Below, piece after piece: positions 13,747 through 30,133 of a stretch of DNA of 64,000 bases (position 1 is its first letter; the number at the start of each line of letters is the position of its first letter). The position numbers and the translations under genes were made by a program. The stretch is from the NCBI GenBank assembly GCA_009835395.1, contig VXXM01000071.1:29396-93395 (forward strand). Direction: 5' to 3'. Origin of the DNA: Acidimicrobiia bacterium (GTDB lineage Bacteria > Actinomycetota > Acidimicrobiia > Acidimicrobiales > CATQHL01). Under the pieces are notes generated by a model. The model was not told the DNA's origin and did no database searches. It worked only from the letters and a program-made list of their open reading frames with translations.

Positions 13747-14499
13747 ATGGATCTCCAGTTGACCGACACCGTGGCCATCGTCACCGGGGCCAGCCGCGGA
13801 CTGGGCAGGGCCGCGGCCGAGGCTCTCGCCGGCGAGGGCGCGCGGGTCGTGGCAGCTGCCCGCTCGGCGGATGCCCTGGAGGATCTGGCGGCGGGCTCCG
13901 CCGGGCGGATCTGCCCGGTGCGCTGCGACATGCGCGACGCCGCCGAGGTCGCCGGCCTCGCCGAGGTGGCGATCGAGCGCTTCGGGCGGCTGGACTGCGT
14001 GGTCAACAACGCCGGGATCGCGCCCGCCGGCACGTTTCTGGATCAGGACCTGGAGGTGCTGGCGGAGGTGGTGGCGGTGAACGTGACGGCGCCGGCGGTC
14101 CTGTCGCAGGCCGCGGCCCGCCACTTCGTGGACTCCGGCCAGGGCGGCTCGATCATCAACGTCGGTTCCACCTCGAGCCTCAAGGGCAAGCCGCTGCTGG
14201 CCGCTTACAGCGCTTCGAAGGGTGCCCTGGCGCGCCTCACCGAGGCGCTGGCGGCAGAGTGGGCCCGCTACGGCATCAGGGTGAACATGATCGCCCCCGG
14301 CGCCTTCGCCACCGAGGCCCAGGCGCAGGTGCTGGCCGACGAGAAGATGCTCGCCGCTCGCCTCCGCAAGATCCCCCTGCGCCGGATGGGCGAGCCCGCC
14401 GAACTGGGCCCGCTGGTCTGCTACTTGGCCTCCCCCCTGGCGGCGTTCGTCACCGGTTCCTGTTTCGTGATCGACGGCGGCGAGGTGTCCAAGCTCTGA
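13747..14499 (+). CDS. short-chain dehydrogenase/reductase (SDR)
   Basis: Start at ATG 13747 (MDLQLTDTVAIVTGASRGLGRA). TGxxxGxG cofactor motif, NNAG, and YSASK catalytic motif. Confidence 0.85.
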   Translation: MDLQLTDTVAIVTGASRGLGRAAAEALAGEGARVVAAARSADALEDLAAGSAGRICPVRCDMRDAAEVAGLAEVAIERFGRLDCVVNNAGIAPAGTFLDQDLEVLAEVVAVNVTAPAVLSQAAARHFVDSGQGGSIINVGSTSSLKGKPLLAAYSASKGALARLTEALAAEWARYGIRVNMIAPGAFATEAQAQVLADEKMLAARLRKIPLRRMGEPAELGPLVCYLASPLAAFVTGSCFVIDGGEVSKL

Positions 14500-14575
14500 G
14501 CACCCACCGCAGCGCCGGGCGGCCCCGTGTGGCTGCCAACCGCTTCTCTCCATCCCAGTGACTCCAGGAGGTCCC

Positions 14576-15316
14576 ATGACAGTCCAGCCAACCCTCGTCG
14601 GGGGAGCCGACCGGTCGGTTCTGGGCAGCGCCCCCCTGGCGAGCGGCCAGATCGACGCCGTCTCGCCGAAGTTCGCCGAGGGCCTCGCCCGGGTGCGCGA
14701 GGTCACCGATACCGACGGCGCCTGTCCCGCCTGGGCGAAAGCGCTGTACATGGCGGCCGCGGCGGCCGTCAAGGGTCACCGCCAGATGCTGATGGCGCAG
14801 ATGGAACGATCGCGGGACCTGGGGCTCGAACTCGACGTGGCTCGCGGTGCCGCCCTCACCGTGCTGATCTCCCGCGGCGAGGCCGTCTACACCCTGTTCA
14901 ACTCGGCCATCGACGAGACCTTCGGCCGGACGCTCGGCGCCGGAAGCGGTGATGCCGAGGAGTTCTGCCTGGATCGCCGAGCGTGCCTCGACTACTTCGA
15001 GGACTACTTCGGGTTCGTTCCCGACTACGTGAAGCTCATGGCCGATGAGGCGCCCCGGGCGCTGGAGGGCTACGTGCTGATGCGCGAGTGGTCCCTGGCC
15101 GAGAACGTGCTGGACGCCGGCCACGCCGAACTGCTGCTGTGCACCATCAATGCCGCCGAATTCTCCGCCCGCTTCGTGAACGTGCACGCCAACGGCGCCC
15201 GCCGGGCCGGCTGCAGTGAGGCGCAGATCACCGAGGCGGTGGTGTGCGCCATCCCGGTGGCGGGCGTGGCGGCCTGGCTGCCGGGTGCCGACGGCATCAT
15301 GGAGGGCCGTTCGTGA
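14576..15316 (+). CDS. carboxymuconolactone decarboxylase (AhpD-like) family protein, two-domain
   Basis: ATG at 14576 sits 5 nt after AGGAGG; the ORF-track GTG at 14558 is less likely. Helical CMD-like repeats are present. The stop overlaps the next gene as GTGA. Confidence 0.5.
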   Translation: MTVQPTLVGGADRSVLGSAPLASGQIDAVSPKFAEGLARVREVTDTDGACPAWAKALYMAAAAAVKGHRQMLMAQMERSRDLGLELDVARGAALTVLISRGEAVYTLFNSAIDETFGRTLGAGSGDAEEFCLDRRACLDYFEDYFGFVPDYVKLMADEAPRALEGYVLMREWSLAENVLDAGHAELLLCTINAAEFSARFVNVHANGARRAGCSEAQITEAVVCAIPVAGVAAWLPGADGIMEGRS

Positions 15317-16353
15317 CACGTGCCGATGGTCTCGCCGACGGTCCGGCCGATGGCCTCATCGACGTGCACGGCCACATCGTGCTGGAGGGCTCGATGGGGC
15401 AGGCGGGAGCATGCGGCCCCGAGATCGGCCACCACCCCGACGGCAGCCCGTGGTTCCGCGTCGGCAACTACCAACTCGACGGCGTGGCCTACCGGGGATC
15501 GCTGTTCATCGAGGTGGACATGCGCCTCGCCGCCATGGACACCGCCGGGATCAGGCTGCAGGCACTCTCGCCGAACCCGCTGACCTACCTGCACTTCATC
15601 GACGCCCCCGCCGCGGTGGACTTCTGTCGGGCGCACAACGACAGCCTGGCCGAGGTCGTGGCCGGCCATCCCGGCCGGTTCGTGGGCCTCGGCGCCCTGC
15701 CGATGCAGGACATCGGGGCGGCCTGTGCCGAGTTGCGTCGCATCGTCGGCGACCTGGGGCTGCTCGGCGGTTACGTCGGCACCGACTTCGGCACGCCGCT
15801 GGACGCGCCCGCCATGGACGCCCTCTACGAGACCTGCCTGGAGCTGGACGTACCGCTGTTCCTGCACCCCACCCAGTCGGGCATCGACGGCCCGCTGCTG
15901 GACGAGCGTTTGCGGCGCTGGGATCTGGACCTCGTGCTGGAGTACTCCTTCGAGGAGGCCCTGGCAGCCGCGACGCTGATCTTCGGCGGCGTGCTGCGCC
16001 GTCACCCCGCCCTGGACATCTGCCTGAGCCACGGCGGGGGATCCCTGGCCCTGACGCTGTCAAAGCTGCGCAAGCTGGCCGAGCGGCGCCCCGCCTCGCC
16101 GGACTGGCTGAAGCCCGAAGGCGTCTTCGACAGCCAACTCGAACGGCTCTGGTTCGACTGCCACGTGACCGGCGAGCGCGAGTTCGCCTTCGTCACCGAC
16201 GTCCTGGGAACCGACCGGCTGGTCTACGGCACCAACTTCGGGGGCTGGGACCGCGGCGCCGGTCCGCACGTGGGCGAGTTGGCAGGCACGCTCAACGAGA
16301 ACGCCGCCCGGCTGCTGCGCCTGGGCGACCGGGCCCCTCAACTGCTGGCCTGA
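15313..16353 (+). CDS. amidohydrolase-2 family protein (ACMSD/LigW-type decarboxylase or hydratase fold)
   Basis: GTG at 15313 overlaps the upstream stop. It carries the DVHGH metal motif near the N-terminus, and later FLHPT and LSHGGG segments typical of PF04909-like proteins. Confidence 0.7.
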   Translation: MTRADGLADGPADGLIDVHGHIVLEGSMGQAGACGPEIGHHPDGSPWFRVGNYQLDGVAYRGSLFIEVDMRLAAMDTAGIRLQALSPNPLTYLHFIDAPAAVDFCRAHNDSLAEVVAGHPGRFVGLGALPMQDIGAACAELRRIVGDLGLLGGYVGTDFGTPLDAPAMDALYETCLELDVPLFLHPTQSGIDGPLLDERLRRWDLDLVLEYSFEEALAAATLIFGGVLRRHPALDICLSHGGGSLALTLSKLRKLAERRPASPDWLKPEGVFDSQLERLWFDCHVTGEREFAFVTDVLGTDRLVYGTNFGGWDRGAGPHVGELAGTLNENAARLLRLGDRAPQLLA

Positions 16354-16398
16354 GGCGCGGGGTCGGCGAGGAGATCCGGCCGGAACGAGGAGGAGACG

Positions 16399-17271
16399 AT
16401 GGCTACCGAAGCGCCGCTGCTGGCGAACGAGGCGGATCATCCCCAGGAGGTCGTGGCCACACACGGTGACCGGCGGGTCGTGGTCATGGACTCGGCCCGC
16501 TACGTGGACGCCCGCAACCACCGCAGCGACGTCGTGGTGCCTGCCTCGTACCTCGGGGTGCTGCCCGCGCGGCTCATGGTGCCTCACAGGCCTCGGGCGG
16601 TCATCGCCCACGACGGCGCCGTCGGCATGGACGGGGCGGGCATCGCGGGGCTGTGGTACCTGGAGGCGCTCGGCATCCCCGCTGCCACGGCGTCAGCCGA
16701 ATCGTCGGAGTTGGGCAACGGCATGGACCAGTACGCCTGCGGGGTGATCAGCCGGCTCAACATCTACGCCGAGCGCTGCGGGGTGACCGAGGGGATGCCG
16801 GTGGCGGAGGCCGCCAGGCTGCTGGCCTGCAACGACCCGGTCGGCGAGATCGACGAGGGCACGAAGATCCGCCGCGAGGTCATGGCCACCTCGCCGACGG
16901 GTCGGGAGTTGGTGGTGACCGATTCCATCGTGTTCGCCCAGCCGGGGGACTCCCGCAACGTGCTGGTGACCGCCGGCCACACCGGCCGCAGCGGGGCGGG
17001 GTTCTTGCTGGAGGTCTCCCCGCACGGCTTCATCTGCGCCGACGGCGGCCGCGCCAAGAACGACTCCGGCATCGCCGGCCTGGCCATCGTGGAGCGCCAC
17101 GGCCTGGCGGGCGGCTCCTTCGATGCGTGGACGGCCCCCATCGGCGACGCCTTCAAGGCGTACGAGATCGGCAAGGTCGGCGCCTGCAACCGCCTGGCGG
17201 CGGCTCGTGGCGTCGCGGTGGGCATGCCGGTTCGCAACGCCGCCATGGCGCTCCTGCTGCACGAGGACTGA
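16399..17271 (+). CDS. conserved hypothetical protein with internal tandem domain duplication (paralog B)
   Basis: 290 aa, colinear with the 8975-9868 product. Shared blocks include SY.GVLPAR, G.DG.GIAGLW.LEALGIPAA, NVLVTAGHTGRS, GFIC.DGGR..DSG.AGL and N.LAAARGV.GMP. Confidence 0.7.
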   Translation: MATEAPLLANEADHPQEVVATHGDRRVVVMDSARYVDARNHRSDVVVPASYLGVLPARLMVPHRPRAVIAHDGAVGMDGAGIAGLWYLEALGIPAATASAESSELGNGMDQYACGVISRLNIYAERCGVTEGMPVAEAARLLACNDPVGEIDEGTKIRREVMATSPTGRELVVTDSIVFAQPGDSRNVLVTAGHTGRSGAGFLLEVSPHGFICADGGRAKNDSGIAGLAIVERHGLAGGSFDAWTAPIGDAFKAYEIGKVGACNRLAAARGVAVGMPVRNAAMALLLHED

Positions 17272-17278
17272 GCCGCCG

Positions 17279-17704
17279 ATGCAGCCGCCGGACCGCGCCG
17301 ACCGAGCGCTGACCGGTGAGTTCTGGGCTGGCGTGGACCGGGGCGAACTGCTGCGGCCGGTCTGCGGACGCTGCGGGCGGAGCTTCTTCACCCCCCAGGT
17401 GGTCTGCCCTCTCTGCGGCAGCGGGCGTTGGACCTACGAGCCGAGCGCGGGACGCGGCACGGTCTACAGCTTCACCGTGGTGCATCGCCCGCCCGAGCCG
17501 GCCTTCGAGGCGCCGTACACCCTGGCCGTCGTTGACATGGCCGAGGGCTGGCACCTGCTGACGTGGATCGTGGACTGTCCGGCGGACGAGGTCCGGATCG
17601 GGATGGAGGTGCAGGTCCGGTTCACAGCCGGACCCGACGGCGCGCTCCTGCCGGCATTCGCCCCGCGGGCCGCCGCCCATGGGCCTGCCGGAGCGGCGGC
17701 ATGA
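17279..17704 (+). CDS. DUF35-type Zn-ribbon/OB-fold protein (thiolase-associated)
   Basis: ATG at 17279. Zinc ribbon CGRCGRSFFTPQVVCPLCGS is followed by the OB-fold segment GTVYSFTVVH...LAVVDMAEG. The stop overlaps the next start as ATGA. Confidence 0.75.
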   Translation: MQPPDRADRALTGEFWAGVDRGELLRPVCGRCGRSFFTPQVVCPLCGSGRWTYEPSAGRGTVYSFTVVHRPPEPAFEAPYTLAVVDMAEGWHLLTWIVDCPADEVRIGMEVQVRFTAGPDGALLPAFAPRAAAHGPAGAAA

Positions 17705-19254
17705 ACGTCGGCCTGGCCTTCCGGCGCAACGCCGTGCGCTACCCGCACGGGACCGCGCTGTTCGACGTGGGGCCGCAGCGACGCGACGTGACCTGGGCGG
17801 AGCTGGAGGAGCGGACCAACCGCATCGCCAACACGCTCGCGGGCGCGCTCGGCATCGAGCTCGGGGACCGCGTGGCGCTGCTCGTGGCGAACCGTCCCGA
17901 GGTCGTCGAGGTGCTCGGCGGGATCACCAAAGCCGGAGCCGTCCACGTGGGGCTCAACTTCCGCCTCGGTCCCGTCGAGCTGGACCAGATCGTGGACAAT
18001 GCCCGGCCGCGCCTGCTGCTCTGCGACAGCGAGTACCTCAGCCAGACCGCCGAGGTCGCCGAGAAGTACGGCCTCGAGGTGCTGGACATCGACGGCGAGC
18101 CGTACCGGTCCCTCGTGGCCGCGGGGTCGCCGCGGTCGCCCGCCACGTTGCACGAGGTGCGACCGGGCGACGACTTCTGCATCGTCTACACGAGCGGAAC
18201 GACCGGGCGGCCCAAGGGCGTGCTCTTCGACCATGCCCGCGTCCTGCAGCACGCCACCGTGACGGCGCTGGAATACGAGATCTCCCGCCACAGCCGCTAC
18301 CTGTTGCAGATACCGCACAACTCCAGCGTCAACATCACAATCGTGCCGACGCTGCTCATCGGGGCCGCGCTGGGGTTCCGGGACAGCCGCAGCTTCGAAC
18401 CCCGAGGATTCGCCGAGACGGTCGACCGCCAGGGTGTCACCCACTCGTTCCTGGTACCGACGCAGCTGATGCGCCTGCTGGGGAGCCTGCCGCCGGCAGA
18501 CGACGGCCTGCTGGGCGGGCTGGTGACATTGGGCTACGGCGCATCGCCCATCTCGCCGGAGCGCCTGGGCGAGCTGATCGGCCGTTTCGGCAACGTCTTC
18601 AACCAGCTCTACGGCATGGCCGAGATCGCCTCCATCGGCACGATGCTGCGCAAGGACGACCACCTCCGAGGGCTGACCGAACGTCCGGAGTTGCTGGGTT
18701 CCTGCGGCCAGCCGTCCTACGCCGTGGACGTGCGAGTGGTCGACCCCGACGGCAACGACGTCGCCACGGGGGAGCGGGGCGAGGTCGTCTTCGGCGGGCC
18801 CTATGTCATGAAGGGCTACTACCGGGACCCCGAACGCACCGCCGAGTCGCTGCGGGACGGCTGGATGCACTCCGGCGATGTGGCCACCGTCGACGACGAG
18901 GGGTTCATCTACATCGTCGACCGGCTCAAGAACCTCATCATCCGGGGCGGGCTGAACATCGCCCCCACCGAGATCGAGAACGTGCTGTACCGCCACCCGG
19001 CTGTGCTGGAGTGCTCGGTGGTGGGGGTGCCCGACACCGACTGGGGCGAGGCCATCGTGGCGGTGGCGGTGCTCAAGGAAGGGATGGCGGTCGGCCCCGA
19101 CGAACTGCGGGAGCACTGCCGGCACTCGGAGTTGACCTCGATCAAGGTGCCCGAGCGAGTGGAGCTGATCGACGCCCTGCCGAAGAACGCCGTCGGCAAG
19201 ATCGCCAAGGACGAGATCCGCAAGCGCTACTGGGGCGAGGGGCGCCAGGTGTGA
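17701..19254 (+). CDS. AMP-dependent acyl-CoA synthetase/ligase
   Basis: ATG at 17701 (MNVGLAFRRNAVRYPHGTALFD). Motif IVYTSGTTGRPKGV and C-terminal LPKNAVGKIAK. Confidence 0.85.
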   Translation: MNVGLAFRRNAVRYPHGTALFDVGPQRRDVTWAELEERTNRIANTLAGALGIELGDRVALLVANRPEVVEVLGGITKAGAVHVGLNFRLGPVELDQIVDNARPRLLLCDSEYLSQTAEVAEKYGLEVLDIDGEPYRSLVAAGSPRSPATLHEVRPGDDFCIVYTSGTTGRPKGVLFDHARVLQHATVTALEYEISRHSRYLLQIPHNSSVNITIVPTLLIGAALGFRDSRSFEPRGFAETVDRQGVTHSFLVPTQLMRLLGSLPPADDGLLGGLVTLGYGASPISPERLGELIGRFGNVFNQLYGMAEIASIGTMLRKDDHLRGLTERPELLGSCGQPSYAVDVRVVDPDGNDVATGERGEVVFGGPYVMKGYYRDPERTAESLRDGWMHSGDVATVDDEGFIYIVDRLKNLIIRGGLNIAPTEIENVLYRHPAVLECSVVGVPDTDWGEAIVAVAVLKEGMAVGPDELREHCRHSELTSIKVPERVELIDALPKNAVGKIAKDEIRKRYWGEGRQV

Positions 19255-20552
19255 GCGGCCCCGCGGCCCGGCGCCATCCGCTGGCGGGCATCGCCGTGGC
19301 GGGGGTCGCGGCCACGCGCCAGGCCCGCAGCCTCGACGGCAACTCGATACAGATCTGCCTCGAGGCGGCCCGGGCGGCGCTCGACGACGCCGGCATGACG
19401 ATCGACGAGGTGGACGGCATCTCGGCACGCTGGCCTGGTCCCGGCGGCACCGTCTTCGGGCCCGGCTCGGTGGACTGGACCGCCGTGTTCGGCAAGGGGT
19501 TCGACTGGGTGGGCGACACCTACCCGCAGGGCGCCCCCGGCCTGCTCGACGCCGCCGCCGCCATCCTGGCGGGGCAGTGCTCCACGGTGCTGGTGTTCGG
19601 CGGCCGGGCAGGCGAGTCTGCGGCGGGTTCCCCCGGCGCCGCCACGAGGGCCACTGTTCCGTCGGGCGACGACGCCTCGAGCGCCGCTGTTTCGTCGGGC
19701 GACGACGCCATGAGCGCCGCTGTTTCGTCGGGCGACGACGCCACGAGCGCCGTCGCGAGCTACACGCGGCCCGAGAACGAGTTCGTGGCCTGCTGGGGCT
19801 CGCTCACGGCGGCGCAGTTCGCCCTGGTGGCGCAGGTGTACCTGCACCGGTTTGCCCCCGATCCGGAGCGGATGGCTCTGGTGCCCGCCACGATCCGCAA
19901 CGCGGGGTCCGCCAATCCGGAGGCGGTGATGTACGGGCGAGGCCCCTACGAACCCGCCGACATCCTGGCCTCGCCACCGGTCGCCGAGCCGTTCCGGTTG
20001 CTGGATCTGTGCCTGGCCACCGAGGGTGCCGCCGCCATGGTCGTCACGGGCGTCGAGCGCGCCCGGGACTGCCCGTCGGCGCCTGCGGTGATCCTCGGCG
20101 GGGGCTCGGAGTGGTACCGCCAGCAGTACGTGGATCCGCCCCGCTACGACGACGTGGCCCGGATCGGCGCCGGCGCCTACCGCCGCAGCTTCGGCATGGC
20201 CGGCCTGCGGCCCGGCGACGTGGACGTCTTCGAGCTCTACGACATCTGTACCTTCGAGGTGGTCCGGCAGTTCGAGACTCTGGGCCTCTGCGCCGAGGGC
20301 GAGGGCGTCGACTACCTGGCCGAGGCCGGCATCGGGCTCGACGGCCGGCATCCCACCAACACCGACGGGGGGCTGCTGGCGTACTCGCACGTCGGCTGGG
20401 GCGGGCCGACGCTGAAGATCGTCGAGGCCGTGCGCCAGATCCGCGGCGCCGCCGGGCCCGGGCAGGTCCCCGGCGCCGAGGTGGCCCTGGTGACCGGCGC
20501 CGGCGCGGGGGCCCAGTACCACAACGCGGTGCTGTTGGGAGCCGACCGCTAG
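19251..20552 (+). CDS. thiolase-fold (SCP-x/Ltp-like) protein, apparently lacking the canonical Cys nucleophile
   Basis: GTG at 19251 overlaps the ligase stop as GTGA. It has thiolase-like N- and C-terminal halves (…ILAGQCSTVLVFGG…, …NTDGGLLAYSHVGWGGPT…). It is the usual partner of DUF35 proteins. Confidence 0.7.
   Translation: MSGPAARRHPLAGIAVAGVAATRQARSLDGNSIQICLEAARAALDDAGMTIDEVDGISARWPGPGGTVFGPGSVDWTAVFGKGFDWVGDTYPQGAPGLLDAAAAILAGQCSTVLVFGGRAGESAAGSPGAATRATVPSGDDASSAAVSSGDDAMSAAVSSGDDATSAVASYTRPENEFVACWGSLTAAQFALVAQVYLHRFAPDPERMALVPATIRNAGSANPEAVMYGRGPYEPADILASPPVAEPFRLLDLCLATEGAAAMVVTGVERARDCPSAPAVILGGGSEWYRQQYVDPPRYDDVARIGAGAYRRSFGMAGLRPGDVDVFELYDICTFEVVRQFETLGLCAEGEGVDYLAEAGIGLDGRHPTNTDGGLLAYSHVGWGGPTLKIVEAVRQIRGAAGPGQVPGAEVALVTGAGAGAQYHNAVLLGADR
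19653..19751 (+). repeat. in-frame 33-bp tandem repeat, 3 copies, inside the thiolase-fold gene
   Basis: Copies at 19653-19685, 19686-19718 and 19719-19751, differing at only a few bases. They encode (V/A)SSGDDA(S/M/T)SAA units. Confidence 0.9.
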
Positions 20553-20564
20553 CGCGGCGGCCGG

Positions 20565-21722
20565 CTAGGCGCGCTGGTTGAAGCGGCGGTTCAGGTATTC
20601 CGAGACGATCCGCACCTTCTGGATGGTGGGCGTGCCGCCGGCGATGGCCCAGCCGTGGGAGTCGCGCAGGCGCCGCTCGATGCCGTACTCCTCGCTGTAG
20701 CCGTAGCCGCCGTGCAACTGCACGGCCACGTCGGCCACCTTCTTGGCCATCTCGTTGGCGAAGCACTTGGCCATGGACGCCTCGAGGGTGCGGGGAGCGC
20801 CGCGGCCCGCCCGCGCCGCCGCACGGTAGATCAACAGCCGGGCCGCTTCGACCTGCAGGATGATCTCCGCGAGCGCGGTCTGCACCGTCTGGAACTCCAC
20901 GATCTCCTTGCCGAACTGCCGGCGCTCGGTGACGTACGCGGCACAGAGATCCAGGCATGCCTGTCCGATGGCCAGGCTCATCGTGGCGTTGCCGAGCCGT
21001 TCGATCGAGAACGCCGTGAAGAGGCGCCCGAAGCCGCCGGCGTCGATGATGAGGTTCCCCGCCGGCACGGCCACGTCGTCGAAGAACATGTCCGCCGAGG
21101 GGATGCCTCGGAAGCCCATGAGGCGCTCCTGGGGGCCGTACGTGAGCCCATCGGAGTCTCGGTCCACGACCAGCGCCCCGATGGCGCGGGCGCCGCGCTC
21201 GTCGTTCAGGCGCACGTACACCAGGTACTGCTCGGCGTGTCCCGCCCCCGAGCACCAGCGCTTCGTGCCGTTGATGACGTAGTGGTCGCCCTGCCGCACC
21301 GCGGCGGTGGTCATGTCGGTGGCGGCCGAGCCGGCGTCGGGCTCGGAGATCGTGATCGCCATCGTCACCTCGCCGGCGGCGACGGGCGGGAGCAGGCGCT
21401 GCTTCTGTTCGGGTGTGCCGAAGAGGTCCACGACCCGCGCCGGGCCGGTGTTGGCCTCGAAGACACCGAACGCCGCCGTCGGGGCGGCCTTGGCAAGTTC
21501 CTCGATGACGATGAGGGAGTCCAGCAGGTCGGCACCGCCGCCCCCGTACTCCGTTGGCAGGCCCATGCCCATGTAGCCCAACTCGGCCAAGCGACGCCGC
21601 TCGGCGTCGGGGAAGGGCGTGCGCTCGGCGTCCCAGGCCGCGGCCTGCGGCTCGTACAGGTCGGCGGCGAGCGCGGCGACGGTCTCCCGCAGCGCCTCCT
21701 GCTCGGGCGTCAGGTCGATCAC
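20565..21722 (-). CDS. acyl-CoA dehydrogenase
   Basis: GTG at 21720-21722 (VIDLTPEQEALRETV...) overlaps the upstream stop as GTGA. Motifs ITISEPDAGSA and GGYGYSEEYGIERRLRD are present. Confidence 0.85.
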   Translation of the reverse strand: MIDLTPEQEALRETVAALAADLYEPQAAAWDAERTPFPDAERRRLAELGYMGMGLPTEYGGGGADLLDSLIVIEELAKAAPTAAFGVFEANTGPARVVDLFGTPEQKQRLLPPVAAGEVTMAITISEPDAGSAATDMTTAAVRQGDHYVINGTKRWCSGAGHAEQYLVYVRLNDERGARAIGALVVDRDSDGLTYGPQERLMGFRGIPSADMFFDDVAVPAGNLIIDAGGFGRLFTAFSIERLGNATMSLAIGQACLDLCAAYVTERRQFGKEIVEFQTVQTALAEIILQVEAARLLIYRAAARAGRGAPRTLEASMAKCFANEMAKKVADVAVQLHGGYGYSEEYGIERRLRDSHGWAIAGGTPTIQKVRIVSEYLNRRFNQRA

Positions 21723-22453
21723 GCCGGGACGGTCCGGTAGAGGTCCCACATGTCGTAGAACAGTCGCCCTGTCTCCAGCGTGCAGTGGTATACCGCGTCG
21801 CGCTGGGCGGGCGTGCGGGCGTACTCCGAGACGATCTCGATGCCCTCGTCGCCGTGCTCGGCGTCGGCGAGGATGTGCATGGTCCAGAAGATCAGGTCCT
21901 CGTCGCTCATGCCGTAGTTCTGCTTCTGGGCCGCCACGATGCGGGTGAAGGTGTCGGGGACGAAGGACTCCAGGCCGATGCCGATGGCGGCCAGCGGCAC
22001 GCACCAGTCCCGGCACAGTCCCATGAACTCGAAGTACTCCGTGAGCCGGCGCCCGGCGGGCAGCTGCTCGGCGCGGCGCATGGCGTCGGTGTCGCCGCCG
22101 AGCGCCGCGCCCCATTCCAGGAGAAGCTCGGGGTGGGCCTTGGTGCCGGTCTCGATGCCCATGCACTCCTCGGCCAGGTTCTTGACCAGGGTGGTGCGCA
22201 CGTCCTCGTGGGGGCAGTTGACGTAGATGGCCCCGATCCACGGAAGCATGCGCGAGATGTGCAGGTAGAACTGCTCGCAGAAAAGCACAAGCTGCGGGAC
22301 CGTGACGCTGCCGTCCTCCATGGCGGACACGACCGGGTGGTCGCCCATGCCGGTGCCGGGCTTGGAGAGTTCGGCCCGGAGCAGCCCCACGAAGTCCTCC
22401 GGTGTCATCGCGGCGAGTTCTGCTGTGCTCGGTGCGGTTGCTGTGATTGTCAT
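21719..22453 (-). CDS. heme-oxygenase-like di-iron (HDO; TenA/PqqC/CADD-fold) protein
   Basis: ATG at 22451-22453, about 10 nt after GGAGG. All-helical, 244 aa, with candidate ligand set NLAEE...AH, GLES and MHILADAEHGDEG. Confidence 0.6.
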   Translation of the reverse strand: MTITATAPSTAELAAMTPEDFVGLLRAELSKPGTGMGDHPVVSAMEDGSVTVPQLVLFCEQFYLHISRMLPWIGAIYVNCPHEDVRTTLVKNLAEECMGIETGTKAHPELLLEWGAALGGDTDAMRRAEQLPAGRRLTEYFEFMGLCRDWCVPLAAIGIGLESFVPDTFTRIVAAQKQNYGMSDEDLIFWTMHILADAEHGDEGIEIVSEYARTPAQRDAVYHCTLETGRLFYDMWDLYRTVPA

Positions 22454-22527
22454 GTGAGGTGCCTCCGGAGGTCGGATGGAGTGGACGGTTGTTCGGTTCG
22501 GTTCGTGGGTCGGGAGGAGCCTGCCGC

Positions 22528-23754
22528 TCAGGGTGCCTTGGTGAAGATCACCGGGTAGCGCCCGAAGTAGGGCCGCGTGGTGGACGCGTCCATCTCGGGC
22601 GGGTCCTCGGGATCGGGGACGCAGCCGTGATCGAACATGGTCTGTACCGCCACCGGCGTGACGCCGAACAGATGCCCATCGAGACCGGTCTCCGCGTCGA
22701 GGACGATGCCCGCGGCCAGGTCCTGGCCGATGCAGGCGTGCATGCCCATGCCGAAGCTGAGACCCCACGGGTGCGCTCCCTCGGGGACCTCCCGCAGCGG
22801 GTTGAAGTCCTCAGCGTCGTCGCCGAAGACCGCCGGATCGCGGTTCACTGTGGGCAGGTCGATGACAACCTTGTCACCGGCGCGGACGGCGGTGCCGTCG
22901 GCGAGTTCCACATCGGCCTCCGCCCATCGCACCGCCACGGGGCTGGAGGGCTGCAGCCGGATCGTCTCGTGGGTGGCGCGCTGGCAGAAGAGCCGATCCT
23001 GGCGCGGCTGCTCGGCGGACTCGGGGTGCTCCTCGAGCCAACTGAAGATGTTGTGCATCGCCCGGGTGAAGGCAGTGGCACTGGTGTGTGCCCCGGCCAG
23101 CATGTAGAAGGCCACCTCCCGGCAGATGATCTCCGGGGTGAGGTCCAGGTTGTCCTGGTTGCGTACCAGGACGCTCAGCACGTCAGGGGGCAGCTCGGAC
23201 TCCTCCGCCGCGCCGGCCGCGATCCGGTCCAGGACGCCCTGGCGGCGTTCGATGCCCGGCACCAAGAACTCCTCGTGGAAGGCCTGCACGGCGGCACGGA
23301 TCTCCGCCGACTTGGCCTCCTTGTCGCCCGTGTAGTGCGCGATCGTGGCGCCCTCGATGAACAGCATGAGGTAGTCGTAGAGCCGGAAGGTCTCCTCGGG
23401 GGTTCCCTCGGGGCGGTCCACGCCGGCGGTGAGCGCGGCGAGGTTCATCATCAGCTGATGGCTGAAGCGCACCAGCTCGGTGCGTCCCGCCGCCAGGTGC
23501 GGTGCCAGCGTCTCGTCGAAGATGACCGGGAACAGGTCCTGCTCGTAGTGCCAGAAGGTGTCGCGCCGGAACAGGCGGTTCTCGAGGCGGCGACGGTTGC
23601 GGTGCTCGGCTCCGTGCAGGTTGATCAACACGTCGGCCATGACGACGTCGCCCTCGTCGTAGGAACCCTGGCGCAGGTCGCGGTTGCGGTAGCACTGCTG
23701 CGCCGCGGCGTAGGTCTCGATGGTGACGGTCCGGGGGGTGGTGGTCGAGGTCAT
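22528..23754 (-). CDS. cytochrome P450 (paralog 1)
   Basis: 408 aa. Heme-thiolate loop FGMGMHACIGQDLA, I-helix-like AGAHTSA, and an ETIRL K-helix. Confidence 0.9.
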   Translation of the reverse strand: MTSTTTPRTVTIETYAAAQQCYRNRDLRQGSYDEGDVVMADVLINLHGAEHRNRRRLENRLFRRDTFWHYEQDLFPVIFDETLAPHLAAGRTELVRFSHQLMMNLAALTAGVDRPEGTPEETFRLYDYLMLFIEGATIAHYTGDKEAKSAEIRAAVQAFHEEFLVPGIERRQGVLDRIAAGAAEESELPPDVLSVLVRNQDNLDLTPEIICREVAFYMLAGAHTSATAFTRAMHNIFSWLEEHPESAEQPRQDRLFCQRATHETIRLQPSSPVAVRWAEADVELADGTAVRAGDKVVIDLPTVNRDPAVFGDDAEDFNPLREVPEGAHPWGLSFGMGMHACIGQDLAAGIVLDAETGLDGHLFGVTPVAVQTMFDHGCVPDPEDPPEMDASTTRPYFGRYPVIFTKAP

Positions 23755-23781
23755 GATCGGCGCCTCATGGTAGGGAGTGCA

Positions 23782-24141
23782 TCAGAAGTCGGCGTCGTCG
23801 AGGGCGACGGTCTGGTGGACGATGAATCCGCCGGCGGTGGTGAACGTGTCGCACCCGGACGTGCCGTCGCCGGGACCCCCGGCGATGCGCCAGCGCACCG
23901 AGACGCTCCCGTCGCTGTGGTGGCGTCGCTCGCCGAAGACCACCTCGCCGCCTCCGAGGCGCTCGGGGACCGACGTGAAGTACTCGGCGATCACCGCCGC
24001 GCCGTCGTACGACGCGTCGTGGCGAACGAGCATCGCGCCGGGGGCATAGTCGGACGCCATGGCGACCGGGTCGCCGGTGAGGACCGCGGTGAGGTGGTCC
24101 TCGACGACCTGGCGGGTGCTGCGCCCGGCGAGCTCAGTCAT
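23782..24141 (-). CDS. SnoaL/NTF2-like fold protein
   Basis: 119 aa, with size and pattern typical of SnoaL-like polyketide cyclase/isomerase-fold proteins (VVEDHLTAVLTGDPVAMASDYAPGAML...). 8-nt overlap with the upstream SDR. Confidence 0.5.
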   Translation of the reverse strand: MTELAGRSTRQVVEDHLTAVLTGDPVAMASDYAPGAMLVRHDASYDGAAVIAEYFTSVPERLGGGEVVFGERRHHSDGSVSVRWRIAGGPGDGTSGCDTFTTAGGFIVHQTVALDDADF

Positions 24142-24898
24142 GCGTGACCCCCAGCCCCAGCCCTCCGTCCACCACCAGCACCTCGCCGGTGGTCCACTCG
24201 GCCCGTGCCAGGTACTCGAAGGCCTCGGCGATCTCGGCGGCGGTGCCGATGCGGCCGAGTGCGTGTGCCCCGGACATGGCCGCCAGCCGGGCCGCGGCCT
24301 GCTCGTCGTCGAAGAGGCCGGCCCGCTGGTTGATCTCGGTCAGCACCGCGCCGGGACGCACGCAGCCCACCCTGATGCCCTGGGGGCCCAGTTCGGCGGC
24401 AAGCACGCCGGTGAGTGTCTCGATGGCGCCCTTGGTGGCAGCGTACGGCGCCACGCCCGGGAAGCTGCGCTTGGTGTGCACCGAACCCACGAAGAGCACG
24501 CACCCCCTGCTGGCGCGCAGATGCGGCACCGCCAGGCCGCACAACATCATTCCCGCCACCACGTTGCTGTGGAAGAGTTCCAGCAGCCGGTCCTCCTCCA
24601 GTTGCTCCACGGGTCCCCGGTACATGTTCCCGGCGTTGTTGATGAGCACATCCAGGCGCTCGCCGCCGTGGCTGACGGCGGCGCGGATCATGCGCTCCCG
24701 GTCGGCGGTCACCGTGACGTCACCCGCCACCGCGCAGCAGCGCTCGCCGAGCCGGCCCGCCACCGCCTCCACCTTCTCGGCCCGCCGGCCGGTGATGGTC
24801 ACCGACGCCCCGGCCGCGACGAAGTGCTCGGCCGCTCCCTCGCCGATGCCCGACCCGCCCCCGGTGATCAGCACCGACATGCCCTCTGTGGGTCTCAT
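24134..24898 (-). CDS. short-chain dehydrogenase/reductase (SDR)
   Basis: ATG at 24896-24898 overlaps the upstream stop as ATGA. Motifs ITGGGSGIG, NNAG and YAATK. Confidence 0.85.
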   Translation of the reverse strand: MRPTEGMSVLITGGGSGIGEGAAEHFVAAGASVTITGRRAEKVEAVAGRLGERCCAVAGDVTVTADRERMIRAAVSHGGERLDVLINNAGNMYRGPVEQLEEDRLLELFHSNVVAGMMLCGLAVPHLRASRGCVLFVGSVHTKRSFPGVAPYAATKGAIETLTGVLAAELGPQGIRVGCVRPGAVLTEINQRAGLFDDEQAAARLAAMSGAHALGRIGTAAEIAEAFEYLARAEWTTGEVLVVDGGLGLGVTHD

Positions 24899-25698
24899 GA
24901 CGCCGCCGACCGTCCCGGAGTGCGGGCTGCGTCGCCGACGCCGTCCACGCTGGCCGGCCGTGGCAGTTGCGAGAGGATCGACATCGTGATGCCGCCGTCG
25001 ACGAGCAGCGTCTGGCCGCACACGTAGTCGGCGTCGGGGGAGGCGAGCCAGAGGACCGCCTTGGCGATGTCGGAGGTGCTGCCGAGTCGCCCGGCGGGCA
25101 CGGCCAGCTCGCGCTCGGCGCGCAGCACGGGGTCGACGTTGATGGGCGCCGACATCCCGCCGTCGATGAGGCCCGGGGCCACGCAGTTGACCCTGATCCC
25201 GAACCGCGACCACTCCAGCGCCATCTGCTGGGTCAGCATGATGATGCCCGCCTTCGTGGAGGCGTAAGCGCCGGCGTTGGGTCCGGGGACGGTGCCGTTC
25301 ATCGACGCCATGTTCACGATCCGGCCGCCCCCGGCGGCGGCCATGCGTCGCGCCGCCGCCCGGCCGCACAGGAACGTGCCGACGAGGTTGACAGCCACGA
25401 CGGCCCGGAAATCTTCGGCGCCGTGTTCCAGCAGCGGGCCGAAGCGGACGATGCCGGCGTTGTTGACGAGCACGTCGGGGGTGCCGAAGCTGTCGAGCGC
25501 GGCCTCGATCTCGTCCTCCTCGCTGACCGAGGCCGCCAACGCCGCCGCGCCGTTGATCTCGCCGGCGACGCGCCGCGCGCCGGTGCCGTCGGTGTCCAGG
25601 ACGCCGACGCGGTAGCCCGCAGCCCCCGCCAGGCGGGCGATCTCGGCGCCGATGCCGGCGGCTCCGCCGGTCACGAGTAGCGAACGGTCGGCTGTCAT
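24895..25698 (-). CDS. short-chain dehydrogenase/reductase (SDR)
   Basis: ATG at 25696-25698 overlaps the P450 stop as ATGA. Motifs VTGGAAGIG, NNAG and YASTK. Confidence 0.85.
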   Translation of the reverse strand: MTADRSLLVTGGAAGIGAEIARLAGAAGYRVGVLDTDGTGARRVAGEINGAAALAASVSEEDEIEAALDSFGTPDVLVNNAGIVRFGPLLEHGAEDFRAVVAVNLVGTFLCGRAAARRMAAAGGGRIVNMASMNGTVPGPNAGAYASTKAGIIMLTQQMALEWSRFGIRVNCVAPGLIDGGMSAPINVDPVLRAERELAVPAGRLGSTSDIAKAVLWLASPDADYVCGQTLLVDGGITMSILSQLPRPASVDGVGDAARTPGRSAAS

Positions 25699-26945
25699 GG
25701 CTGCTCCTGGCGCTCGGCGGCTACGAAGACGATGGGGTAGGAGGAGAAGTGGGGGCGCTTGGTGTGGGGATCCTGCACCGGCGGATTCTCCGGATCGGGT
25801 CGGCCGCCGGCTGCGAGCGTGGCCGTGAGCATCACCGCCACGGTCCCGTAGAGATGATCGTCGTCGCGGATGCCGTCTCCGAGGATCTCCATGCCGCCGT
25901 CCAGTTCGGCACCGATGCAGGCGTGGGCGCCGGCGCCGAAGCTGAGGCCCCATGCGTTGGCGCCCTCGGGCACCGGGCGGTGCGGGTTGAAGACGCCGGC
26001 ATCGGGCCCCCACACCTCGGGGTCGCGGTTCACCGTGGCGAGGTCGATGACGACCCGGCTGCCCTGGGGCAGCACCGTGCCGTCGCGCAGGCTCACGGTG
26101 CGCAGCGGCTCGCGCCACGCCGCCGGGCTCGCCGGGTTGAGGCGCAGCGACTCGTGCACGCAGCGCTGGGCGAAGGCGAGATCGGTGGCTGCCCGGCGGA
26201 GGTCCTCGGGGTGCGCCTCGGCGCGGCGGAAGATCTCGTCCAGGGCGTGGGTGTAGGTGTCGGCGGTGCTGTGGGCCCCGGCCTGCAGATAGAAGCAGAT
26301 CTCCCGCTCGATCACCGCAGTAGAGATCTCGAGAGCCTCCTGGTGGCGGAGCAGCAGCGTCGCCACGTCACGGGGCAGGTCCTCCTCGGCGATCTCACCG
26401 GCGGCCAGGCGGTCCAGGGACTCGCGCCGGCGGTCCAGGGAATCGGTCAGCATCTCCGCCCGGAACGCCTGGAGTTGCTCCCGCACCTCGGTCCGTACCT
26501 GCTCGGGGTCCCGGGTGGAGTGCGCCAGGGTGGCGCCGGCGCTGAAAGTGCGCACGAAGTCCTCCAGCCGCGAGGTGTGAGCCACGTTGGCCGGGTCGTG
26601 GTCCACGCCGGCGATCGTTGCGGTGAGGCTGATGGCGGCCCGGTAGCCGAGTGCCCGCAGGTCGGCTCCCCCGGTCGCCACGTAGGGCGCCATCACCGCC
26701 TCCAGCGTGTCGCCCAGGACCTGGCGCTCCCAGTGGGCGAAGGTCTCCCGGCGGAACAATCGGTTCTCCACTCGCCGCCGGCGTCTGTGGGCCTCGCCGT
26801 GCAGCACCAGCAGGCAGTCCTCCATGATCACCGCGCCCTCGTCGTACATGGCCTGGCAGAGGTCCTTGCTCCGGTACGCCTCGCGGGCCTGCTGCCAGCC
26901 CGTCAGCACGATCGCGTCGCCCCGGCCGGTCAGGGTGCTCCGCAC
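25695..26945 (-). CDS. cytochrome P450 (paralog 2)
   Basis: GTG at 26943-26945, preceded by GGAGG and 1 nt after the meaB stop. Heme loop FGAGAHACIGAELD. Colinear with the 22528-23754 product (shared RRRxENRLFRR, VIDLxTVNRDP, VPEGAxxWGLSFG). Confidence 0.85.
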   Translation of the reverse strand: MRSTLTGRGDAIVLTGWQQAREAYRSKDLCQAMYDEGAVIMEDCLLVLHGEAHRRRRRVENRLFRRETFAHWERQVLGDTLEAVMAPYVATGGADLRALGYRAAISLTATIAGVDHDPANVAHTSRLEDFVRTFSAGATLAHSTRDPEQVRTEVREQLQAFRAEMLTDSLDRRRESLDRLAAGEIAEEDLPRDVATLLLRHQEALEISTAVIEREICFYLQAGAHSTADTYTHALDEIFRRAEAHPEDLRRAATDLAFAQRCVHESLRLNPASPAAWREPLRTVSLRDGTVLPQGSRVVIDLATVNRDPEVWGPDAGVFNPHRPVPEGANAWGLSFGAGAHACIGAELDGGMEILGDGIRDDDHLYGTVAVMLTATLAAGGRPDPENPPVQDPHTKRPHFSSYPIVFVAAERQEQP

Positions 26946-26946
26946 C

Positions 26947-27999
26947 TCAGACCTCCGGCTTGTCGCCGCCGGCGTCAGCGGTCGCGTCCCGCTCGGGGAG
27001 TTCGCCGGCCAGTCGCCGTGCCGCCGCCGACGGCGCCAGTGTTCCCTGTGCCACCTCGGCGAACAGTTGCGCCGCTTCCTGCGACGGCTGTGCCACCAGC
27101 AGATCCACCCAGCGGTGCAGGTGGCGGCGCACTTCCTCGGCAACGTGCCGGGTGCGCCGCTCCGCTCCGGCGCTGGAGGTGCGCAGGTGGTGGCGGTGAT
27201 CCTGCACGTGCTTGAAGAGCTCGTCGGCACCCTCGCCGGTGGTGGCGACCGTCAGCGCCACCGGTGGTCTCCAGCCGGTGCCATGGCCCAGGTCCAGCAT
27301 GTATTCCAGGTCGCGCCGCGCATCGGCGGCCCCTGCTCGGTCGGCCTTGTTGACCACGAAGATGTCGGCCATCTCCAGCAGGCCGGCCTTGTTGGCCTGC
27401 ACGGCGTCGCCCCATCCCGGGCTCACCGCCACGATCGTGGTGTCGGCGGTGCGGGCGATGTCCACCTCGACCTGCCCGATGCCGACGGTCTCCACGATGA
27501 TCAGGTCGTGTCCGGTGGCGTCGAGCAGCCTGACCGCCGCCAGTGCCGCCAGAGCCAGCCCCCCCGACTGGCCGCGGCTCGCCATGGAGCGTACGAAAGG
27601 TCCGCCGGGCGCCGCCGCGCTGCCCATCCGCACCCTGTCGCCGAGGATGGCGCCCCCGGTCAGCGGCGACGAGGGATCCACCGCCAGGATGGCGACCCGC
27701 CGGCCGTCCTCGGCGGCTACCTGCGCCAGGCGGTCGGTGAGGGTGGACTTGCCGACGCCCGGTGCGCCGGTCATGCCCACCACGTGGGCGGCTCCGGCGA
27801 GCGGCCAGGCGGCGACGGCGACGGCGTCGGCGAGCGGCCCGCCCCGCTCGGTGTAGGTCAGCAGCCGCCCGAGCGCCCGCCGGTCGCCGCCGCGGGCACG
27901 CTCGAAAAGGGCCGTGACGTCTCCGGCGGCGACGGCCGAGTCGGCGGGTTGTGCCGCTGGGCGCTCGGGCGTGGGGCTGCCTGGCAGCTCGGTGGTCAC
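26947..27999 (-). CDS. meaB: MeaB/ArgK-type G-protein chaperone for B12 mutases
   Basis: 350 aa. Walker A GAPGVGKST and the VNKAD G4 motif. GTG overlaps the mutase small-subunit stop as GTGA. Confidence 0.85.
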   Translation of the reverse strand: MTTELPGSPTPERPAAQPADSAVAAGDVTALFERARGGDRRALGRLLTYTERGGPLADAVAVAAWPLAGAAHVVGMTGAPGVGKSTLTDRLAQVAAEDGRRVAILAVDPSSPLTGGAILGDRVRMGSAAAPGGPFVRSMASRGQSGGLALAALAAVRLLDATGHDLIIVETVGIGQVEVDIARTADTTIVAVSPGWGDAVQANKAGLLEMADIFVVNKADRAGAADARRDLEYMLDLGHGTGWRPPVALTVATTGEGADELFKHVQDHRHHLRTSSAGAERRTRHVAEEVRRHLHRWVDLLVAQPSQEAAQLFAEVAQGTLAPSAAARRLAGELPERDATADAGGDKPEV

Positions 28000-28448
28000 G
28001 CTCGGGCTGCGGCCGCCGCCCGGACCACCTCAGCCACCTCCGTCGCCGAGGCGCCGGGGCCGAGGACGGCGAACACGCCGGCCTCACTCAGGCGCTCGAG
28101 GTCCATGTCCGGCACGATCCCTCCCACCACGACCGGCACGTCCATACCGGCGGCGCGCACGGCCTCCACCATGCGGGGAGCCAGCGTGAGATGACCGCCG
28201 TTGTGGATCGAGAGGCCGATCACGTCGGCGTCCTCCTGCTCGACGGCGAGCAGGATCGACTCGGTCGTCTGGCGTAGACCCAGGTAGATCACCTCCAGGC
28301 CGGCGTCGCGCAGCATGCGGGCGACCACCTTCAGGCCCCGGTCGTGGCCGTCCAGTCCCAGCTTGGCCAGCACCACCCGGACCGGTTCCGGGCGGTCGGG
28401 GTCGCGTTCGGCCTGCGAGCCCGCCGTGCCGACGGCCGGGCCGGTCAT
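27996..28448 (-). CDS. acyl-CoA mutase small subunit (cobalamin-binding domain)
   Basis: ATG at 28446-28448 overlaps the large-subunit stop as ATGA. Carries the DxHxxG base-off/His-on motif ([11 protein letters not shown]). Confidence 0.85.
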
Positions 28449-30133
28449 ACGACCGCCGGTTCGGTATAGGTGCCGAAGACGCCCTCGAGGGCGTGGACGA
28501 TCTCGCCCTCGGTGGCCGCGACGCGCACGCAGTCGATGATGGGCTCCATGAGGTTGACCGTCGGGTCGGCGGCACCTGCGGCCAGCCTCTCCAGTGCGGC
28601 CACGACGGCCCCGCTGTCGCGCTGCTGCTTCGCCCCGGCCAGGCGCGCCAACTGCTGGTCCTCGACGTCGTCGTCGATGTAGAGGATGGGAGTGTCGCCG
28701 TCGTCGCCCTCGGTGTAGGCGTTGACGCCCACGATGATCCGCCGCCCGGCGTTGACCTCGCGCTCGAAGCGGTAGGCGCTGTCGGCGATCTCGCCCACGA
28801 AGTAGCCGTTGGCGATGCCCTCGTAGACGCCCTCCAGGATCGAGCCCTCGCCGAGCTTGTCGAGATGATCGAACACCTCGGTGGCGCGCCGCTCCATCTC
28901 GTCGGTCATCCACTCCACGTAGGCGGAGCCGCCGAGCGGGTCGGCCACGCTGGGAGCGCCGGTCTCGTGCGCGATCACCTGTTGGGTCCGCAGGGCGATC
29001 CGCGCCGCCTGCTCGGTCGGCAGGGCGAGCGCCTCGTCGTAGCTGTCGGTGTGCAGGCTCTGGGTGCCGCCGAGCACCGCCGCCAGCGCCTGGGTGGCGA
29101 CGCGGGCGATGTTCACCTCGGGTTGCTGGGCGGTGAGCGACACGCCGGCGGTCTGGGTATGGAACCGCAGTTGCAGCGATCGCTCGTTGCGGGCGCCGTA
29201 GCGATCGCGCATCCAGCGCGCCCAGATGCGCCGGGCGGCGCGGTACTTGCCGATCTCCTCGAAGAAGTCGATGTGGCTGTTGAAGAAGAACGACAGGCGC
29301 CCGGCGAAGTCGTCCACGTCCAGTCCGGCGGCCATCGCCGCCTCCACGTAGGCGAAGCCGTTGGCGAGGGTGAAGGCCAGTTCCTGGGCGGCCGTGGAGC
29401 CGGCCTCGCGGATGTGGTAGCCGCTGATGGACACGGGGTGCCAGCGCGGCATCTCGGCGGTGGTGAAGCGGATCAGGTCGGTCACCAGCCGCACCGAGGG
29501 GCGCGGCGGGAAGATGTACTCCTTCTGCGCCTGGTACTCCTTCAGGATGTCGTTCTGGATGGTGCCGCTGAGCAGGCTGCGGTCGGTGCCGCCGCGTTCG
29601 CCGGTCACGATGTACATGGCCATGAGGATGTTGGCGGGGCCGTTGATGGTCATCGACGTGCTCACACCGCCCAGGTCGATGCCGGCGAAGAGGTCCTCCA
29701 TGTCGGCGACCGTGTCGACCGCCACGCCGGCCCGGCCGACCTCGCCGACCGCCCAGGGGTGATCGGAGTCGCGCCCCATGAGCGTGGGCATGTCGAAGGC
29801 CGTCGACAGCCCCGTGCCTCCGGCGTCCAGGAGCCTCTTGAAGCGCAGGTTGGTGTCGGCCGCGGTGCCCATGCCGGCGAAGAGCCGCATCGTCCACAGC
29901 CGTGAGCGGTACATCGAGGGGTAGATGCCTCGCGTGTACGGGAACTGCCCGGGGTAGGGGGGATCCCCATGCACCGCCGCCAGCGGGACACCGGACATGG
30001 TCTCGAAGGTGCCGTCGCGCAGCGGGGCGGCCTCGAAGGCGGTTCGCCACTGCGCTTCGGCCCGGGCGCGTGGCGAGTCCTCGTCGTCGTGCGATTCGGC
30101 TCCGCCGGGGACCGGATTGTCGGGGAGGCTCAT
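28445..30133 (-). CDS. B12-dependent acyl-CoA mutase large (substrate-binding) subunit, isobutyryl-CoA-mutase-like
   Basis: 562 aa, colinear with the methylmalonyl/isobutyryl-CoA mutase TIM-barrel ([26 protein letters not shown]..., [20 protein letters not shown]). Confidence 0.85.

Follow-up and report, generated by a model that had tools for sequence, protein, structure and literature searches.

An uncharacterised subfamily of predicted heme-oxygenase-like di-metal oxidases encoded among acyl-CoA metabolism genes of Acidimicrobiia

A 64,000-nt stretch of Acidimicrobiia DNA (contig VXXM01000071.1 of assembly GCA_009835395.1, positions 29,396 to 93,395; hereafter the window) carries a minus-strand gene for a 244-residue protein which, as judged from family profiles and a predicted structure, represents an uncharacterised, well-defined subfamily of the heme-oxygenase-like di-metal oxidases (HDOs). 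We consider it likely, with a probability of about 0.7, that this HDO protein has a di-metal site, probably Fe/Fe, and oxidises an intermediate in the CoA-dependent breakdown of a bulky acid. The subfamily is a new, uncharacterised member of a known superfamily found in an unusual context, and as such is a lead for enzyme discovery and not a new kind of system.

Fold and family membership

The HDO protein matches the Pfam family PF14518 (Haem_oxygenas_2) over residues 58–228 with 81 bits against a cut-off of 28.9 (E = 1.2e-22). An AlphaFold2 model, computed from an alignment of 64 relatives, is all-helical (pLDDT 93.8, pTM 0.90), and a Foldseek search with this model returned 92 matches at E ≤ 0.001, headed by FeII/MnII CADD (8va9), MnII/MnII CtCADD and CT610 (TM 0.80/0.90) and followed by PqqC, BesC, UndA, HrmI, HamA and FlcD. 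In pairwise superposition with VIA-align, the model aligns with Chlamydia CADD (1rcw_B) over 213 of 214 residues with a Z-score of 26.3 and a root-mean-square deviation (rmsd) of 1.8 Å; the Z-scores for the other structures are 25.9 for 8va9, 25.1 for PqqC, 21.6 for UndA, 21.3 for HrmI, 21.1 for FlcD and 20.5 for BesC. The nearest solved chains by sequence are 4-aminobenzoate synthases, with E = 6.8e-15 for 9pj4 and E of about 4e-9 for 1rcw and 8va9. An earlier note on this DNA, made from the sequence alone, had proposed an HDO and a comparison of its predicted structure with solved ones by Foldseek. That comparison yields the heme-oxygenase-like helical fold with CADD as best match, and the above-cut-off PF14518 score, the HDO fold of the model and the retention of six CADD ligand positions support both the assignment and the structural reading behind it.

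The predicted metal site

In a sequence alignment, residues E96, H107, E162, H193, D197 and H200 of the HDO protein stand opposite E81, H88, E142, H174, D178 and H181 of CADD, which we take to be the metal ligands of that enzyme in this numbering. All six candidate 3-His/3-carboxylate residues are invariant in 64 of 64 subfamily members, and among distant relatives of 27–50% identity E96, H107, E162, H193 and H200 are invariant in 18 of 18 and D197 is kept in at least 90%. The motifs from which the ligand set had originally been picked out, NLAEE (residues 92–96), KAH (105–107), GLES (160–163) and MHILADAEHGDEG (192–204), are all found in the translation, and the residues proposed do land on the CADD ligand positions. 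Because the model superposes on metal-loaded CADD at 1.8 Å, the six ligands are predicted to converge on a dinuclear site.

The likely occupants of this site are two metal ions, with Fe/Fe more probable than Mn/Fe. In NePabS, according to PMC11965152, changing F148 and F177 to Tyr switches the cofactor from Fe/Fe to Mn/Fe. The corresponding columns hold L161 and F189 in the HDO protein, both invariant in the alignment and neither of them Tyr, and it is on account of these metal-choice positions that we lean towards Fe/Fe.

The gene and its operon

The interval given for the gene in the earlier note (21719–22453) is correct in position, but the strand had been left unstated: the plus-strand frame gives an unrelated reading, and the 244-residue protein comes from the minus strand. 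At a G+C content of 68–75% long chance open reading frames are plentiful in the window. That this one is nevertheless a genuine gene, and did not arise by chance in a 71% G+C genome, is seen from its G+C content by codon position (0.65/0.45/0.93), its PF14518 match and the 118 homologues with 53–95% identity from genomes of 42–72% G+C. That protein identity of about 68% is kept among loci across this range of G+C content also indicates purifying selection on the HDO protein.

Ten minus-strand genes form an operon in which the HDO gene is the ninth, with transcription running from an acyl-CoA mutase large subunit towards an acyl-CoA dehydrogenase (ACAD) (Table 1). As had been noted before, the HDO gene lies between a cytochrome P450 gene, which ends 74 nt upstream, and the ACAD gene, and its stop codon overlaps the GTG start of the latter as GTGA. 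The operon is tightly packed, with six overlapping junctions (four of the ATGA/GTGA type, the 8-nt overlap between SDRa and the SnoaL-like gene, and the HDO–ACAD GTGA), a gapless junction between the MeaB and P450b genes, and two remaining gaps of 27 and 74 nt. A promoter and terminator scan of positions 19000–31000 returned 0 and 0 sites against 0.5 and 2.1 expected and is uninformative at this G+C content.

The subfamily and its distribution

At E ≤ 0.001, 118 homologues with 53–95% identity were retrieved. Among 1.84 billion cluster representatives, there were 4 matches at E ≤ 1e-30, 152 at E ≤ 1e-10 and 595 at E ≤ 0.001, the best at 52% identity and the next at 39% and 33%. By sequence, the subfamily is thus discrete and tight. 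Members occur nearly exclusively in metagenome-assembled genomes labelled Acidimicrobiia or Acidimicrobiales, of marine, sponge or freshwater origin. When the class to which the window belongs was sampled evenly, 3 of 401 genomes, that of the window included, had a member at E ≤ 1e-30.

Eight loci (L040, L042, L044, L045, L047, L049, L050 and L053) come from metagenome-assembled genomes labelled Betaproteobacteria, Burkholderiales, Acetobacteraceae, Bifidobacterium or Flavobacteriales, reflecting either mis-binning or horizontal transfer; their members are 60–75% identical to those of Acidimicrobiia.

With a broader CADD-like profile, matches at E ≤ 1e-15 occur in 84 of the 401 genomes sampled from the phylum, a count that includes eight unpublished genomes, all of which match (G401, G417, G445, G483, G538, G610, G711 and G718); nothing else presented here depends on these eight. 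The HDO gene scores 308 bits with this profile and the next best 163. The nearest other clade in the phylum sample (224 residues, at most 163 bits) lies behind a gene for an SdhA/NadB-like flavoprotein, and other CADD-like relatives adjoin genes for short-chain dehydrogenases/reductases (SDRs), ferredoxins or aldehyde dehydrogenases. Since these clades stand beside different genes, the acyl-CoA context described below is specific to the HDO subfamily.

Gene neighbourhood across loci

Loci were collected by a pattern-based scan with one genome per species, which gave 54 loci, 52 of them with a full-length member. In 35 of these 52 the HDO gene has some ACAD-family gene within 300 bp, and in 38 within 3 kb. 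In 11 of the 35 the distance is within 6 bp, as in the window, and in the other 24 the gap is 56–253 bp. Also within 3 kb are a P450 (33 of 52 loci), an SDR (36) and a thiolase-like protein (22), while a CoA ligase (33), a protein with tandem DUF1805-like halves (29, adjacent in 8) and a mutase (12) are found within 10 kb. The recurrence of an ACAD gene within 300 bp makes the link to acyl-CoA metabolism robust.

Conservation of particular partners was followed in a distant set of 38 loci whose HDO is less than 80% identical to that of the window, with an ortholog-level partner defined by at least 45% identity. Orthologs of several proteins of the plus-strand module of the window (Table 1) recur near the HDO gene in this set: ACAD2 in 23 of 38 loci, the SDR beside ACAD2 in 22, the tandem-DUF1805 protein in 21, the CMD-family protein in 20, and the CoA ligase and the thiolase-like protein in 18 each. 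In a low-G+C marine clade, the ACAD2 ortholog and the HDO gene are transcribed divergently. Orthologs of the mutase adjoin the HDO gene again at L026 and L031. The association with ACADs is therefore general at the family level, whereas the overlapping ACAD itself is lineage-specific, its ortholog being a neighbour in only one of the distant loci. The earlier note had taken the overlap with the ACAD gene as a hint of a CoA-thioester or closely related substrate; the acyl-CoA link behind this hint holds, but not through that particular ACAD, and a thioester is suggested by context only.

Alternative family assignments

The closest solved relatives of the HDO protein, by sequence and by structure alike, are 4-aminobenzoate synthases, and its best NCBIfam model is the CADD subfamily TIGR04305, so a self-sacrificing p-aminobenzoate (pABA) synthase like CtCADD (CT610) or NePabS, which would sacrifice Tyr and Lys residues of its own to supply pABA for folate, has to be considered. 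The likeness is extensive: the fold corresponds nearly residue for residue, the six ligand positions are shared and a sequence search of the PDB ranks these enzymes first (E = 6.8e-15). According to PMC9522330 and PMC11965152, CADD and NePabS build pABA from their own Tyr27/Tyr25 and Lys152/Lys159. However, the sacrificial Tyr is replaced here by V42 and the amino-donor Lys by I172, and all 64 of 64 members have V, L or I in the first of these columns and I, M, L or V in the second. Neither residue is thus found in any member of the subfamily, and most tyrosines of the proposed radical relay are gone as well (F, F, L, L and F stand in the columns of CADD Tyr 43, 47, 141, 168 and 170). The TIGR04305 score is 81.9 bits against a cut-off of 200, identity to CtCADD and NePabS is only 22–23%, the HDO protein has a four-residue insertion between the first Glu and the first His, and the gene is located in a catabolic operon with no folate context, whereas the characterised enzymes serve folate supply. 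We therefore consider this function very improbable, and a synthase of the CADD type is ruled out by the aliphatic residues in the sacrificial columns. For PqqC, the pyrroloquinoline-quinone synthase after which many relatives are automatically named by JGI, the structural match is also close (1otw, Z = 25.1, rmsd 2.3 Å, 229 aligned residues), but the HDO protein reaches 20.7 bits with the equivalog TIGR02111, whose cut-off is 240. PqqC is a metal-free enzyme, whereas the HDO subfamily keeps the full invariant set of metal ligands. There are no pqq genes in the window, and in the genome from which it derives (94% complete) no PqqE above cut-off (best 95.5 bits against 381) and no match to PqqB was found; a PqqC function is hardly tenable. 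A thiaminase II or pyrimidine-salvage hydrolase of the TenA type would fit the weak PF03070 match, which rises above cut-off in relatives (40.2 bits at L028, for example), the Z-scores of 19–21 for TenA structures, the label 'TenA family transcriptional regulator' that NCBI gives to some relatives, and the NMT1/THI5-type ABC transporter genes that adjoin the HDO gene at L016. The match is not specific to thiaminases, because PF03070 also takes in PqqC and CADD-like proteins, and in the HDO protein it reaches 20.5 bits against a cut-off of 22 and covers residues 35–145 only. The PDB sequence search gave 16 matches at E ≤ 10, none of them a characterised TenA (thiaminase II) chain. The residues that the subfamily keeps invariant are the di-metal ligands, and most loci are acyl-CoA clusters and not thiamine clusters, which leaves a TenA function with a very small probability. 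The earlier note had raised both TenA and PqqC as possible assignments; on the TIGR02111 and PF03070 scores no confident assignment to either is obtained, and neither automatic name is supported by the sequence comparisons.

Proposed role

An uncharacterised HDO acting in acyl-CoA catabolism is thus our preferred reading. By analogy with related enzymes, a diferrous cluster would react with O2 to a peroxo-level intermediate, which may abstract a hydrogen from, or insert oxygen into, a bound pathway intermediate. With UndA and BesC as models, the outcome might be oxidative decarboxylation or C–C scission at a carbon that blocks β-oxidation; hydroxylation or desaturation are equally possible. 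Gene context suggests that the substrate is an intermediate formed when a bulky carboxylic acid, probably an alicyclic or branched one, is degraded by a CoA-dependent route; the remaining steps would fall to the neighbouring P450s, SDRs, ACADs, CoA ligases, thiolase/DUF35 pair and B12-dependent mutase. The HDO would then plausibly clear a position that is impassable to ordinary β-oxidation.

Several observations weigh against this proposal. The spacing between E96 and H107 is four residues longer than in CADD, with a loop at residues 99–106 in the model, and the first ligand helix must therefore differ locally from that of CADD. Neighbourhood counts such as 35 of 52 are drawn from related lineages and not from independent samples, and so overstate the independent support. 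Of the 38 distant loci, only 1 has an ortholog of the window's overlapping ACAD as a neighbour and only 2 an ortholog of the mutase, and 14 of the 52 loci have no ACAD match in the available DNA, although some loci are short. No ACAD is seen at L044, where the HDO gene is accompanied by genes for an IclR regulator, a Liv-type transporter and a tandem-DUF1805 protein, and at L016 its neighbours are those of the ABC transporter mentioned above. The profile matches that bear on the nature of the acid are far below cut-off: the best NCBIfam model for ACAD2 is cyclohexane-1-carbonyl-CoA dehydrogenase (205 bits against 650), and that for a crotonase (within 11570–13717) is BadI, a 2-ketocyclohexanecarboxyl-CoA hydrolase (210 bits against 467).

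ACAD2 and the crotonase accordingly give no more than a weak hint of a ring-opening pathway of the alicyclic-acid type. An OYE protein of the window resembles enoate reductases of the FadH/BaiCD type, below cut-off. The mutase large subunit carries the aligned motif AQKEY, with F, A and Q at candidate specificity positions, which may point to an isobutyryl/pivalyl-CoA type and not a 2-hydroxyisobutyryl-CoA type; it is closest to HcmA (4r3u, 548 bits, versus 447 for methylmalonyl-CoA mutase). In marine clusters, three P450s occur with a limonene-epoxide-hydrolase-like SnoaL protein. Taken together, these weak hints point to an alicyclic or branched, terpenoid-like acid.

Whether the enzyme acts on a CoA thioester or on a free compound is a separate matter. 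An active HDO may oxidise an intermediate that carries no CoA, for instance a free acid or a compound made by the P450s and SDRs, much as UndA and BesC work, the adjacency of the ACAD then reflecting a shared pathway only. A 2026 review (PMC13108848) describes the validated HDOs as acting mostly on free fatty-acid or amino-acid substrates, the gene stands downstream of two P450s, two SDRs and a SnoaL-like protein in the operon, and at L044 the tandem-DUF1805 protein and transporter come with no ligase or ACAD match. On the other hand, the immediate neighbour is an ACAD-family gene in 35 of 52 loci, the HDO and ACAD genes are translationally coupled in the window, and 33 of 52 loci have a CoA ligase within 10 kb. 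We regard an enzyme confined to free substrates as somewhat unlikely, and give roughly one chance in three to a substrate that is a CoA thioester and not a free acid or alcohol. A fuller version of the preferred catabolic reading can be formulated, although it is unlikely to hold in full. The protein would be the first catabolic HDO, a di-iron, O2-dependent enzyme that hydroxylates, desaturates or cleaves the carbon blocking β-oxidation in an acyl-CoA thioester or its immediate free-acid precursor. Marine and sponge-associated Acidimicrobiia might thereby degrade alicyclic or branched carboxylic acids derived from terpenoids or sterols, possibly with the tandem-DUF1805 protein as an accessory.

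Comparison with known systems

The PaaA and BoxB enzymes are ferritin-like di-iron oxygenases whose catabolic substrates are CoA thioesters. Should the HDO protein likewise use a CoA thioester, it would be analogous to them as a di-iron, O2-activating enzyme on an acyl-CoA within a breakdown pathway; in contrast, theirs is a ferritin-like four-helix bundle and not a heme-oxygenase-like fold, and the proteins are non-homologous. UndA and BesC share the HDO fold with the window protein (Z = 21.6 and 20.5) and the type of 3-His/3-carboxylate site described in PMC13108848, and their C–C cleavage or decarboxylation is a plausible type of reaction for lifting a block to β-oxidation. They differ in sequence, with 13–18% identity in the structural alignment and a BesC equivalog (NF042919) score of 20.8 bits against 500, and they are biosynthetic enzymes with free fatty or amino acids as substrates. 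PqqC is alike in fold and in the name used by automatic annotation, and unlike in its metal site, its sequence profile and its pqq gene context, as discussed above.

According to PMC13108848, more than 10,000 HDOs are predicted but reactions have been validated for only about a dozen, and the role described for the superfamily is natural-product biosynthesis. In the open-access literature searched, no characterised HDO tied to ACADs or acyl-CoA catabolism was found, nor anything relevant on Acidimicrobiia with P450 and ACAD. With 53–95% identity across genomes of 42–72% G+C, a complete ligand set, a confident model and a reproducible catabolic context, the subfamily is a good target for de-orphanisation. 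Finding its reaction would extend HDO chemistry to carbon turnover by abundant uncultured marine and sponge-associated actinobacteria, and might reveal an O2-dependent way round a block to β-oxidation.

Occurrence and expression

Near-identical DNA was found in sponge-metagenome runs of six studies, one of which is possibly the source of the window DNA. In one sponge metatranscriptome library, a 997-nt contig with 89 differences spans positions 21646–22643, covering the complete HDO gene together with the 3' end of P450a and the ACAD start. This is a weak hint that the region is expressed in sponge, as contigs of RNA libraries can include DNA and this one cannot demonstrate a single transcript.

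Other genes of the window

Features of the operon and of the plus-strand module beside it are collected in Table 1.

Table 1. Positions of the HDO gene, the other genes of its operon and the genes of the neighbouring plus-strand module, in window coordinates
Feature	Position	Strand	Basis and remarks
Acyl-CoA mutase large subunit	28445–30133	minus	Pfam, NCBIfam; operon gene 1
B12-binding small subunit	27996–28448	minus	Pfam, NCBIfam; operon gene 2
MeaB GTPase	26947–27999	minus	Pfam, NCBIfam; operon gene 3
Cytochrome P450b	25695–26945	minus	PF00067; GTG at 26945 preceded by GGAGG; operon gene 4
SDRb	24895–25698	minus	Pfam adh_short; stop overlaps SDRa start as ATGA; operon gene 5
SDRa	24134–24898	minus	Pfam adh_short; stop overlaps SnoaL start by 8 nt; operon gene 6
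SnoaL-like small protein	23782–24141	minus	PF12680; operon gene 7
Cytochrome P450a	22528–23754	minus	PF00067; operon gene 8, directly upstream of HDO
Ribosome-binding site of HDO gene (GGAGG)	22466–22462	minus	Read directly from sequence; 8 nt 5' of ATG
HDO gene	21719–22453	minus	Translation, PF14518, AlphaFold2 model; 244 aa plus stop; ATG at 22453, TGA at 21721–21719; operon gene 9
ACAD	20565–21722	minus	Three Pfam ACAD domains; operon gene 10; orthologs 80–97% identical in L001–L014
ACAD2	12524–13717	plus	Pfam
SDR of plus-strand module	about 13750–14499	plus	Pfam
CMD-family protein	14558–15316	plus	Pfam
Amidohydro_2 protein	within 12524–20552	plus	Pfam
Tandem-DUF1805 protein	16399–17271	plus	Sub-cut-off Pfam DUF1805 and IMS matches
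DUF35/ChsH2-type OB-fold protein	within 17123–17704	plus	Pfam
Acyl-CoA ligase	to 19254	plus	Pfam
SCP-x-type thiolase-like protein	about 19260–20552	plus	Pfam

The two P450s of the operon are paralogous and neither has a close solved relative; the best PDB relative of P450a (E = 2.4e-13) matches its C-terminal part only. The operon has no ferredoxin or reductase gene for them.

Elsewhere, the window encodes another ligase, a crotonase, an OYE/FadH-type reductase, two Liv-type ABC transporters and glyoxylate-shunt enzymes, and its setting is catabolic. A biosynthetic cluster was considered and ruled out, as the window contains no polyketide synthase or non-ribosomal peptide synthetase.

The tandem-DUF1805 protein listed in Table 1 has a paralog at 8975–9868 on the minus strand. 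The two share 50% identity and each consists of about 290 residues with two DUF1805-like halves; the former lies in the ligase/DUF35/thiolase operon and the latter beside a second CoA ligase. For the plus-strand protein, no PDB sequence relative was found (best E = 1.3), Foldseek with an AlphaFold2 model (pLDDT 85) gave nothing at E ≤ 0.001, and the ESM Atlas returned solely 'hypothetical protein' clusters. Only its C-terminal half matches TA1206 (1qw2; Z = 8.2, rmsd 3.4 Å, 93 aligned residues), a protein whose function is likewise unknown. By title and abstract, no functional study of DUF1805 was found in the open-access literature searched.

The thiolase-like gene contains an in-frame 33-nt tandem repeat at 19640–19752 on the plus strand (3.4 copies, 91% matches), with units of the SGDDA-SAAV type. 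Two contigs from related strains (X20 record 11 and X5 record 19) stop aligning across approximately 19627–19760, which suggests that the copy number of the repeat varies among strains. Genes for malate synthase G, isocitrate lyase and aconitase are grouped at 48526–57039, some 20 kb from the cluster, an arrangement that fits growth on substrates yielding acetyl-CoA.

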